Shown: one piece after another, positions 36,001 to 39,000 of the stretch
Layout: every line of letters begins with the position of its first letter
How positions within the stretch are numbered: position 1 is the stretch's first letter
Origin: a virus
Taxonomy: Duplodnaviria > Heunggongvirae > Uroviricota > Caudoviricetes
IMG/VR virus record: IMGVR_UViG_2526164634_000028
Reading direction: 5' to 3' (one strand)
DNA: 41,531 bases
Made by a program: the position numbers

Positions 36001-39000
36001 TTTGGATGCACTGGCGTTCGTGATCGGGATAATCATTTCATAATTTGCAACATAACTCAATATCATTGCATAAAATGCAATTCTGATTATAATCAGGACT
36101 GGATAAACATCCAGTTATGATTTTTTTAGTCGAAGAGGAATTTCTTACTATGGCTGAAGAGAAAAAAGGCGGTGTTTCGGTGTACATAAGCCCCGAAATC
36201 GTGGAGGTGCTCAAGCAGCGCCACAAAAAAAACTATGAAGCTGGCGTTGCGGCTGGACTGGATCCGCTGATGACGCCGGAGCCGTCGATAGGTTCACTTG
36301 TACGCTCTTATTTACTTGCGGCGCTTGGGATGCATAAAAATTATGGGGGTGAATAATGGCAGGCAAAGCAACGGCACTTAACACTAACCAGCTTTTCATG
36401 TACCTGAATCGCGGGGATATTGCGGATTTTAAATTCAGCCCTCTGTTTACCACGCTGTTTTTCCCGAACGTGGCGACATTCAGCACGCAAAACATCATGC
36501 TGGATACCCTGGACATTGAAGAAGTCACCATGTCGGCGTTTTGTTCGCCTATGGTGGGTAGCCAGGTTCAGCGCGATAAAGGGTACGAAACCAGCACAAT
36601 CAAACCTGGCTACATGAAGCCAAAGCACGAAATCGATCCAACGAAAACCATCATGCGCATGGCTGGAGAAGATCCGGCACAGCTTAACGACCCTACCTAT
36701 CGCCGTATGCGCCTGATTACTGGCAACATGCGCCGCCAGATAAACGCCATTAAGGCACGCGTGGAATGGCTGGCGGTGAATGCGGTAACGACCGGAAAAA
36801 ACATCATTGAGGGCGAAGGCATAGAACGCTATGAAATCGACTGGAAAATACCGGAAAACTGCATCATAGAGCAGGCCAAGGGTAAAAAATGGTCCGAGCA
36901 GGATAAAGACATGCACGACCCAATCTATGACATCGAGCTTTATGCTGATCAGGCTGGTTGCCCCGCAAACGTCATGATTATGGGCGCTGAGGTATGGCGC
37001 ACATTACGCAGCTTTAAAAAATTCCGTGAGCTGTACGATCTTTCCCGTGGTTCAGAATCCGCCGCCGAACTGGCCTGTAAAAACCTGGGCGAAGTGGTGA
37101 GCTTTAAAGGCTATCTTGGTGATCTGGCCCTTATCGTCTATTCCGGCAAATACACTGACAGCGATGGTACCGAAAAATATTTCCTTGAGCCTGATTTGCT
37201 GGTCCTGGGTAACACCAACAATAAAGGGCTGGTGGCCTATGGTGCGATAATGGATCAGGAAGCGGTAAGAACGGGCGCAACACAAAACATGTTTTACCCG
37301 AAAAACTGGATTGAGGACGGCGATCCGGCGATTGAGTACGTGCAGACACACAGTGCACCGCAGCCGGTACCGGCAGATATTCGCAAATTTGTTACCGTCA
37401 AAATTGGTTAACGGGGGGATTCTATGGACACTCCATACATTGAGTTATTTGCAGGCAGTCAGCAGGTATCCACGACGTTGGTACATTTTGCCGCTGATGC
37501 TGGCGTTATTCAGGAATTTACCCCGCTGATGCTGGCAGACAATGGCGAGTTTAAGCCGTGGGATGGTCAGGAATCTGGCAAGGCTGTTTATCTGACCTCG
37601 TACCCTGTGGACACGTCAAAGCAGAAATCAGCACAGTGTTACAAGACGGGGATATTCAATATTGCCGCCGTTAACTGGCCTGAGAGCGTCGACACCGATG
37701 CGAAAAAATGCGCCGCCTTTGCGGGTTCCGGCGTATCCGTTCAGCCGCTGGCCCGATAAGCAGGGGGAACGATGGCAACGAATGAAAGCATCATGACGCT
37801 ACCGCTGGCGAGTAAATTTAAAGTCGAAGCGCGGGCAATGGCTGACAGAGGTTTATCAACCTATGAGGCCGTATATCAACTAAACAAACTGGAAGAGCAG
37901 GACAAGCCGCGCGCTGATGCGATTATGGCGCTTCATGAGCATAAAGACTATCAGCCGCTGTTGCGTGCAATGGCAAACGTGCCTTGTATCGATGTTGGTA
38001 CGGCTAAAAGCATCCTTAGCATGACCATAGAGCAGGAACGTCCGAAGGTTGCGCCGGAACTTACCGCAGCCTTTGAAAACTTTATGGACATGCACAGCCC
38101 GCAAGCCGTATCAGCTGGCATGGCATACGATGGCAGAAACCAGGGCGATGACGGCGACATCGATCGCATACTGAAAACCATCTGAGACAAGGCCGGAGAA
38201 ATCCGGCTTTTTTACGGGTCCTTCCTGGAATTATGGCCCGTTACGGGGCGGCGACCTCGCGGATTTTCGCTATTTATGAGCCTTTTCAGGGGGGTGGTGG
38301 TGGTTTTGTTGTTTGATCTATCTTTATGAATGAAAAGGGAAAGATGCAAGCAATACACCAACCTGAAGCAGTAATTAAGTTGGTGTATTAATGAAATCTC
38401 ATCTGATGAACAAAAAAAACATGGCGAAAAGCTGCCGTGTAAGTGCGACAGCGTTCGACAAGTGGGGAGTAACTCCCGTTGAGCGTAAAGGCCGTGAGGC
38501 GTTTTATGATGTTGCCAGCGTGATAGAAAATAGGGTTAACAATGCAATTAGCCAGCTTATAAACGACAAAGGCGAGATTGACGATGATGAACTTTTACGA
38601 GTCAGGATCAGATTACTGACAGCACAGGCAGAGGCGCAGGAACTTAAAAACGATCGCGATCGCGGTGACGTGATTGATACTGAGTTTTGCCTGTACGCGC
38701 TTTCAAAGCTGGCGAGTCAGATTTCATCAATCATGGACAGCCTCCCGCTTACTATGCAAAGGAGCTTCCCACAGATTACCCCCGCCATGCTGGACAGGCT
38801 TAAAAGGGAAGTGGTTAAAGCCTGTAATGCCAGTGCCAGAGTTGCCGACAACCTCCCACAGATACTGGCTGATTACTTGAAAGAAACAACCGGAAACGTA
38901 CCGGAAAAGTTGCTACAGAAGAAAGGCGAGTAACAGACACGCAATTATTGAACAAAAATGAGAAAGGATCTGATAATGGCATTTTCTGGCTAAAATGCCT

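Follow-up and report, generated by a model that had tools for sequence, protein, structure and literature searches.

A Nu1-family small terminase in the rpp slot of an Escherichia coli phage-inducible chromosomal island: indications of a possible second route to helper packaging

To our knowledge, the Rpp proteins provide the sole experimentally supported packaging-hijack mechanism of Gram-negative cos-type phage-inducible chromosomal islands (PICIs). In this study, we analysed a stretch of 41,531 nucleotides (nt), hereafter the window, from IMG/VR record IMGVR_UViG_2526164634_000028. The window is a piece of E. coli chromosome and holds a PICI with a gene, terS, for a small terminase (TerS) of the Nu1 family. 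With moderate confidence, we propose that this satellite-owned Nu1-type TerS would bind a private cos site of the island, cos1, and would recruit the gpA-type large terminase (TerL) of a helper phage directly, by a route distinct from that of Rpp. The Rpp proteins are 139-154 amino acids (aa) long, with a TerS-like DNA-binding domain and without the last 30-40 TerS residues, and they act only as heterocomplexes with the helper TerS, which supplies the TerL-binding end (PMC6739421; PMC9026076). Rpps need the helper TerS because these C-terminal residues are missing (PMC9026076, PMC6739421), and the island TerS keeps them. With this tail, the island protein should bind TerL itself instead of borrowing a helper TerS.

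The Rpp island EcCICFT073 occupies the same chromosomal site as the window island. It shares with the latter the capsid-E, decoration-D and 137-aa genes as well as the inverted pair of cos sites, and in the slot between these sites c1503, that is, rppA (144 aa; PMC6739421), stands where the window island has terS, directly downstream of cos1. The two islands cease to be homologous some tens of bases inside each cos site; therefore, the unit in which they differ is a cassette of the form cos1-cosB / gene / cosB-cos2. The island TerS shows no similarity to RppA in BLASTP (E 3.3), and RppC (6HLK / 6HN7 chain A) was not among the PDB matches of a phmmer or family-profile search. Membership of the Rpp group was rejected on the lack of homology, the length of 175-180 aa, and a Nu1 core and tail aligned to the lambda Nu1 end. 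A preliminary description of this locus stated that E. coli cos islands use a different redirecting protein, which is correct for the best-studied of them, the EcCICFT073 type with its shorter, helper TerS-dependent Rpp (PMC6739421). Its suggestion of a distinct packaging-hijack mechanism stands as a reasonable reading, because rppA holds the same slot in CFT073 and shares no BLASTP similarity with TerS. Its claim to novelty was overstated: RefSeq already calls the gene "terminase small subunit", a 2018 survey includes Gram-negative PICIs that carry terS (PMC6092414), and SatelliteFinder counts terS as a PICI core component (PMC10085698).

The likeness to the Rpp islands extends from the island family and the slot behind the three shared genes, with cos1 upstream and an inverted cos2 downstream, to the lambda cosN, a private cosB and a (GGT)3/(ACC)3 run at the R3 position. 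Unlike the Rpps, the island TerS is 175-180 rather than 139-154 aa long and keeps a Nu1-type core and a C-terminal tail; its DNA-binding domain is N15-type rather than lambda-type, and the triplet run lies on the opposite strand. A direct ancestry of Rpp in the island TerS was judged unlikely, as the RppA DNA-binding domain looks lambda-type and the island domain N15-type. DNA of the terS type (about 84-100% identity) occurs in 766 of 5,426 complete E. coli genomes (~14%) and DNA of the rppA/B type in 97 (~2%), a rough ratio since megablast would miss RppC-type genes and O157:H7 is over-sampled. The match covers at least 80% of terS in 757 of the 766 genomes, and carriers include O157:H7, O55:H7, O145, ATCC 25922 and Nissle 1917-derived strains.

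The logic of a satellite that supplies the specificity subunit and steals the helper TerL is shared with the SaPIs, the pathogenicity islands of Staphylococcus aureus. We know of no relationship between the SaPI and island TerS proteins themselves. As quoted in PMC6739421, Ubeda 2007 assigns SaPI TerS to pac-type staphylococcal islands with headful packaging; the window island differs in having cos sites, and no Ppi-like partner was identified in it. Like the window island, the capsid-forming PICIs (cf-PICIs) are Gram-negative satellites with a TerS and a capsid protein of their own (bioRxiv 10.1101/2022.09.08.507074). Unlike them, the window island has capsid-E and decoration-D homologues plus TerS only, and a cf-PICI identity was rejected, as no terL, HNH, portal, protease or connector gene appeared in the RefSeq annotation or in our list of open reading frames (ORFs; Pfam was run on selected ORFs). 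The cf-PICIs reportedly have the complete head and packaging set (TerL, HNH, portal, protease, head-tail connectors).

The terS gene and the elements before it are the following (bp, base pairs).

38391..38933, plus strand: terS, Nu1-family small terminase; intact ORF of 180 aa, or of 175 aa from the alternative start at 38406
38216..38290, plus strand: cos1 core, with a cosQ-like segment (38216-38245), cosN GGGCGGCGACCT (38246-38257) and an I2-like segment (38258-38290); left arm of a 76-nt inverted repeat
38293..38314, plus strand: putative R3 of cos1, N15-R3-like, GGTGGTGGTGGTTTTGTTGTTT, bp 48-69 from the first cosN base; proposed binding site of the island TerS
38352..38389, plus strand: second conserved box AATACACCAAC (38352-38362) with an inverted partner (38379-38389), immediately ahead of the terS start

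The Nu1-family gene placed at 38406-38933 in the preliminary description is a real ORF, which starts at 38391 and has its second in-frame ATG at 38406. The alignment with lambda Nu1 advised there was run and identifies the protein as a full-length Nu1 homologue: BLASTP pairs aa 6-166 with residues 3-180 of lambda Nu1, end to end, at 36% identity (E 1e-33). The Pfam family Phage_Nu1 (PF07471) matches with 82.5 bits (gathering score, 30; E 3.4e-23), over aa 60-143 only. The closest phage protein is N15 gp1 (tblastn identity 44%), and in a MAFFT alignment the island TerS is 45% identical both to N15 gp1 and to the Nu1 of the lambdoid phage PhiR5_1. By region, the DNA-binding domain (aa 6-55) is 54% identical to that of N15 gp1, 34% to that of lambda Nu1 and 28% to that of PhiR5_1 Nu1, and the core (aa 85-140) is 43, 48 and 66% identical to the same three proteins, respectively. 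Moreover, the island DNA-binding domain has two deletions relative to lambda that are common to N15 gp1. The N-terminal region aligns with the N15 and lambda DNA-binding domains, and its predicted helix-helix-strand-strand-helix order fits them, at a predicted local distance difference test (pLDDT) score of 40-47 in AlphaFold2; over the whole model, built on 29 close relatives, the mean pLDDT was 51.8. A profile of 29 homologues had lambda TerS 1-98 (6HN7_B) as its best, weak PDB match (E 0.007), and a single-sequence PDB search (phmmer) gave chance matches only. In the likely layout of the protein, an N15-type winged helix-turn-helix (aa ~6-55) is followed by a helical linker, by the Nu1 core for self-assembly and, at the C-terminus, by a region that aligns with the tail through which lambda Nu1 binds TerL. 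This presumed tail (the last 26 aligned residues) is present and alignable, at 27-42% identity to any phage Nu1.

Lambda gpNu1, the founder of the family, also shares the order cosQ-cosN-cosB-terS with the island. It differs in that the island DNA-binding domain is shortened and diverged, that the island gene is an orphan without gpA and that its product has a 14-residue C-terminal extension. A different R-site specificity is expected because the domain is shortened and diverged. Neither the ORF list nor RefSeq has a terL in the island; in the phage and prophage relatives terL follows directly. Hence, the island TerS is an orphan, a Nu1-family member by descent in a non-phage context. No TerS more than 60% identical to it was found among 50,697 phage genome records. 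The gene is under purifying selection, with a ratio of non-synonymous to synonymous substitutions (dN/dS) of 0.15 between the window terS and the allele of the PM4-5 island, the two E. coli alleles compared. Between genera, the DNA-binding domain shows a non-synonymous divergence of 0.16-0.20, compared with 0.48-0.53 for the C-terminal part.

The cosN of cos1, GGGCGGCGACCT, is the exact lambda cohesive-end 12-mer and lies 134 nt before the terS ATG. The window holds two exact copies of it, the second inverted at 39113-39124, compared with 0.01 expected by chance, and the cosQ-like and I2-like flanks of cos1 are 80-82% identical to lambdoid phage cos regions. Together with the att repeats of the island, this exact cosN bears out the earlier view that the gene is island-encoded and stands beside a lambda-type cos. 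In N15, cosB is a single R3 element at bp 48-60 that was defined by linker scanning (Feiss et al. 2015, as reported in PMC9026076), and the N15 R3 sequence is GAGGTTGTTGTTT. In all six PICI cos1 regions compared, from five genera, the block GGTGGTGGT-(G/T)TTGTTGT is invariant; the same six regions have four cosN versions (GGGCGGCGACCT, AGGCGGCAGCGT, GGGCGGCAGACT and GGGCGTCGACCT) and a diverging spacer. The gene lies downstream of a cosN and of an N15-like R3, and this R3 and the DNA-binding domain are kept jointly across the five genera. This joint conservation of an N15-type domain and an N15-type R3 is our main evidence that the island TerS would recognise cos1.

A second box, CAATACACC(C/A)AC, is kept at one place in the same six regions, ~30-40 nt before the start codon. 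In the window, this AATACACCAAC box possibly represents R2/R1-like TerS sites or a terS promoter/operator; a promoter and terminator scan of the cassette gave nothing above shuffle expectation. In distant relatives (38-42% identity; Pseudomonas-, Glaciecola- and Thalassotalea-derived loci, where terL follows), GTT/GGT runs lie just upstream of the N15-like terS genes. Like N15, whose gp1 is the closest phage protein, the island has an GTTGTTGTTT-type R3. Unlike N15, it has no terL downstream, its cosN is that of lambda and not that of N15 (GGGCGGCGTCCG), its C-half is not N15-like in the E. coli allele (41%), and it has a (GGT)n extension and the extra box AATACACCAAC. Of note, the R3 position reads GGTGGTGGTGG in the terS-type cos1 (38293-38303) and ACACCACCACCAC in the Rpp-type cos1 of CFT073 (L002, 11611-11623). 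These are the same triplet run on opposite strands at nearly equal distance from cosN, possibly because the two share an ancestor and the site is inverted, or because the protein binds in the reverse direction.

Enterobacter, Citrobacter, Kosakonia and Superficieibacter have TerS homologues of 54-58% identity. All six Enterobacter and Citrobacter loci (L008-L013, 57-58%) belong to PICI-type islands that have int, replicase, capsid-E, decoration-D, small ORF, cos and terS and no adjacent terL, and the Kosakonia and Superficieibacter loci (54-55%), of which the sequence flanking terS was looked at, have the same cos1 elements. A scan of genome contigs with very specific peptide patterns gave six loci, namely two more island genera and four phage-type relatives. 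Among the island alleles, identity is 66-90% for the DNA-binding domains but, from one main lineage to another, only 36-49% for the C-halves (aa 98-166). The C-half of the E. coli allele is closest to the Nu1 of PhiR5_1/PhiR12 (55-58%). In the Superficieibacter island, TerS (L015, 4001-4504) joins the standard island DNA-binding domain to a C-half 74% identical to lambda Nu1, a clear domain swap. The pattern agrees with a fixed private DNA specificity linked to a half that would be exchanged to suit the local helper terminase. The C-half does not allow a helper to be named, as its best phage match is only 58% (PhiR5_1).

Three of the Enterobacter islands (L008-L010; metagenome and assembly contigs, 1-10800) lie inside the capsid gene E of a lambda-like prophage and are followed by a truncated Phage_cap_E and then FI, FII, Z, U, V, G, T and H. 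Helper-embedded PICIs have been described (PMC10111431); these three are of that kind, with terS in addition, and are natural satellite-helper pairs.

The other end of the cassette is formed by cos2.

38966..39154, minus strand: cos2, a complete phage-type cos with a cosQ-like segment (39125-39154), cosN (39113-39124) and R3-I1-R2-R1
39066-39073 (bp 52-59), 39005-39012 (inverted, bp 113-120) and 38966-38973 (bp 152-159), minus strand: R3, R2 and R1 of cos2, respectively, with the core TCAGATCC and an A/T-rich I1-like spacer
38955..39023, plus strand: hairpin and T-run after terS (arms 38955-38973 and 39005-39023; inverted repeat I10), its arms overlapping R1 and R2 of cos2; probably a terminator

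The 8-mer TCAGATCC occurs three times in cos2, and none of 20,000 shuffles gave even two copies. The layout and flanks of cos2 parallel the R3-I1-R2-R1 architecture of lambda, with GTCAGATCCTTTCT where lambda has GTCGTTTCCTTTCT, and its I2-like stretch is even closer to lambda than that of cos1. CAGATCC R sites are also found in the cosB of the SerU-LTIIb prophage, the TerS of which has a DNA-binding domain of lambda architecture. In the PM4-5 island, the phage-type cos has CATGTCGG-type R sites, very similar to those in the cosB of CFT073 prophage 4, which is the resident lambdoid phage named as an inducer of EcCICFT073 (PMC6092414). The Enterobacter islands L008-L010 have cos1 only, with no cos2 within the region scanned; for the Citrobacter, Kosakonia and Superficieibacter loci, the comparison covered cos1 and the terS-proximal flanks. 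We judged it unlikely that cos2 is a site for the island TerS, as CAGATCC sites serve a prophage with a lambda-architecture TerS and cos2 is absent from the scanned region of L008-L010. Instead, cos2 would be a "public" site for helpers of matching specificity and cos1 the "private" site.

In the mechanism that we propose, a lambda-like helper phage would induce the island. The N15-type winged-helix domain of TerS would then bind the N15-like R3 of cos1 (GGTGGTGGTGGTTTTGTTGTTT, bp 48-69), and the Nu1-type C-terminal half would recruit the helper gpA-type large terminase. Finally, the helper TerL would nick the lambda-identical cosN and package island concatemers into helper capsids. Unlike the Rpp islands, this route should not need the helper TerS, and the helper TerS should ignore cos1 because cos1 lacks lambda-type R sites. 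In addition, the complete phage-type cosB of cos2 probably lets matching helpers package the island with their own unmodified terminase. The proposal builds on the homology, the gene position, the joint conservation of the DNA-binding domain and the R3-like site, the mosaic C-halves and purifying selection; a mosaic C-half is what matching to local helper terminases would produce.

Several points weigh against this proposal. In E. coli, the distance of the R3-like block from cosN exceeds that of the best N15 match by ~9 bp, and spacing is critical in lambda. The AlphaFold model is poor (pLDDT 52), so that the winged-helix fold is taken solely from the sequence alignment. With a tail only 27-42% identical to any phage Nu1, the TerL partner cannot be named, and a self-assembly core 66% identical to that of a phage Nu1 makes mixed oligomers with a helper TerS possible. 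The integrase of this island copy is frameshifted, and the copy may no longer be mobile. Finally, we infer DNA binding, TerL recruitment and helper identity alike.

Mixed oligomers are at the centre of an Rpp-like alternative, which we regard as unlikely. Here, TerS would act mainly by co-assembling with the helper TerS, which would still be needed, and the mixed oligomers would be diverted to the island cos while phage packaging is blocked. Its position in the rppA slot between the same two cos sites would suit this role, as would a core resembling those of PhiR5_1 Nu1 (66%) and lambda Nu1 (48%) and the contact of lambda TerS with Rpp via their DNA-binding domains (PMC6739421). However, there is no similarity to RppA, RppC is not among the PDB matches, and TerS retains the very C-terminal region whose absence explains the dependence of the Rpps on the helper TerS (PMC9026076). 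Its shortened N15-type DNA-binding domain, 28-34% identical to the lambda-architecture domains, also argues against this alternative.

A role as an interference decoy, in which TerS would mainly soak up the helper TerL or bind the helper cos to block the phage and would have little part in island packaging, which would go via cos2, appears improbable. The cosB of cos2 is complete and matches real prophage cosB types, and the N15 terminase reportedly recognises lambda R3 (PMC9026076), which might allow an N15-type domain to bind a helper cos. Yet the R3-like site of cos1 is conserved together with the DNA-binding domain in L008-L010, lineages that have no cos2 in the region scanned, a finding difficult to account for if cos1 is not the site in use. 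We give very little credence to an inert relic, in which terS and the cos sites would be functionless remains of a lambdoid prophage that has decayed ("cryptic prophage CP-933C"): earlier annotations treated the element as a degraded prophage (PMC3378721), and it has no terL, portal or tail genes and carries a frameshifted integrase in this copy, but terS is at least 80% covered in 757 of 766 genomes with a match and has a dN/dS of 0.15, the capsid E - D - orf - cos - terS module recurs in five genera next to integrases and replicases that differ, mobility has been shown by experiment for the sister island EcCICFT073 (PMC6092414), and the pattern of domain conservation and C-half exchange likewise argues against it.

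Both cassette orientations exist in nature. The two cosN copies lie at the centres of an inverted repeat of 76 nt with 91% matches (38215-38290 / 39080-39155), and a query in which 38215-39155 was reverse-complemented within its natural flanks matched five complete genomes over 98-100% of its length at ~90-91% identity. In agreement with these matches, the terS of PM4-5 (L020, 3900-4850) is annotated opposite to the flanking island genes, so that the phage-type cos faces the capsid module and cos1 and terS point backwards. A broader reading, which we offer as tentative, is that E. coli PICIs may possess a packaging-specificity cassette that is modular, can be inverted and is flanked by two cos sites in inverted orientation, with a private cos on one side and a public, phage-mimicking cosB on the other. 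The private cos would be served by Rpp or, ~8 times more commonly in complete genomes, by an N15-type TerS with a helper-matched C-half. The R sites of the public side would track the lambdoid phages, of the SerU-LTIIb type here and of the phage-21/CFT073-prophage-4 type in PM4-5. Because both cos sites expose the same cohesive end and form 76-nt inverted repeats, either homologous recombination or cutting by terminase with subsequent re-annealing could flip cassettes or exchange them among islands.

If true, the cassette reading would answer two questions raised by the Rpp work: why the islands have a pair of cos sites, and why, and from what source, several redirecting proteins exist. The locus suggests a second, apparently commoner solution in the rpp slot for capturing the packaging motor of a helper. 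Provided that the direct route is used, TerS-TerL rather than TerS-Rpp compatibility would set which phages mobilise islands carrying RgdR and PerC, and the island alleles would form a natural TerS domain-swap series linking DNA recognition to TerL. Our literature search, with most subscription journals outside its coverage, returned no paper on EcCIRM12579, the catalogued form of this island, or on the mechanism of a cos-type PICI TerS, and no description of terS/rpp replacement, of an N15-type recognition pair, of C-half swaps, of the phage-type nature of cos2 or of cassette inversion. Accordingly, what appears to be new is the occupancy of the rppA slot, the N15-type pair, the C-half swaps, the phage-type cos2, the flipped cassettes and the prevalence of terS relative to rpp.

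The remaining features of the island are the following.

28854..40072, plus strand: whole island, a Gram-negative PICI of the EcCICFT073/EcCIRM12579 family (relatives of OI-51/CP-933C), between roxA and phoQ
29035..30263, plus strand: tyrosine integrase, frameshifted; split into 216-aa and 186-aa ORFs in the ORF list
36356..37411, plus strand: homologue of the lambda gpE-like major capsid protein (Pfam Phage_cap_E, E 5.5e-50), at the position of c1499 in EcCICFT073 (PMC6092414)
37424..37759, plus strand: homologue of the lambda gpD-like head decoration protein (Pfam HDPD, E 5e-18)
37772..38185, plus strand: conserved 137-aa ORF, last gene before the cassette; no Pfam match, kept in the CFT073 and PM4-5 islands
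38187-38216: terminator-like hairpin after the 137-aa ORF (repeat family D2), abutting the cosQ of cos1
39189..39431, plus strand: small conserved ORF of 80 aa at the right flank of the cassette, just outside cos2

The 10-bp att repeats GGACATATTT bound the island at 28854-28863 and 40063-40072, with a chance expectation of 0.08 copies. EcCIRM12579 is catalogued between ycfD and phoQ with att GGACATATTT (PMC6092414 Table S1), which is exactly this element, and the island is 99.9% identical to it. The same identity holds over the whole length (11.3 kb) with the O55:H7, O111:H8 and O157:H7 copies. RefSeq lists, on one strand, int, an AlpA-type helix-turn-helix protein, small ORFs, a RepA-type helicase, SSB and PerC, followed by the capsid-E homologue, the decoration-D homologue, the 137-aa ORF, the "terminase small subunit" and a small ORF. 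Co-oriented integrase, alpA, replication and capsid/packaging genes, a dedicated att and the lack of lysis and tail genes agree with a Gram-negative PICI of ~10-15 kb. The OI-51/CP-933C/Sp7 group, to which the island belongs, carries the virulence regulators RgdR and PerC (PMC3378721), and EcCICFT073 is the only island of the family with demonstrated helper-induced excision, replication and high-frequency transfer (PMC6092414). In a global alignment with the intact 409-aa integrase gene of O55:H7 CB9615, a 1-nt deletion at 29649/29650 is the sole gap inside the coding sequence. Excision of this island copy without outside help is improbable, although its terS and its two cos sites are intact.

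Minor sequence features accompany these genes. The right-flank small ORF is 80 aa long in the window and 93 aa as annotated in CB9615 and CFT073. The terminator-like hairpin GCCGGAG(A/C)AATCCGGCTTTTTT is found in three copies after successive island genes (35550-35579, 35914-35943 and 38187-38216). Just inside the island ends, a 75-nt direct repeat (76% identity; 28939-29013 and 39915-39989) with tandem GGTGTAGTTAAT motifs may provide integrase arm-type or regulator binding sites.

The late genes of a lambdoid prophage occupy positions 1 to ~20,000 of the window. It is followed in the window by potB, potA, pepT, roxA (ycfD; 27665-28795, minus strand), the 11.2-kb insert and phoQ (40071-41531, minus strand). 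In the terminase region of the prophage (window 1-1960; L004, 6375-10960), the first ~334 nt of the window are the end of ISEc22, an IS66-family element whose insertion splits the prophage gpA (257-1960), with the N-terminal part gone from the reading frame. The truncation of this gpA had been noticed before, and it had been proposed as the natural partner of the island TerS. We rejected this partnership. Besides being cut, the gene is paired in this prophage with a DUF1441-type TerS. GGGCGGCGACCT is missing from the prophage cos region, which contains instead a putative cosN-like sequence of another kind, GGGCGGACGGCG. Furthermore, the N-terminus of this gpA is unrelated to those of lambda, N15 and PhiR5_1; in lambda gpA, the N-terminus is the TerS-binding end. 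Elsewhere in the prophage, the tail-assembly chaperone region contains a perfect 26-nt tandem duplication (GACTGGCGCGTGAGATGGGGAGACCC x2) at 8582-8633, between the G-like and T-like genes.

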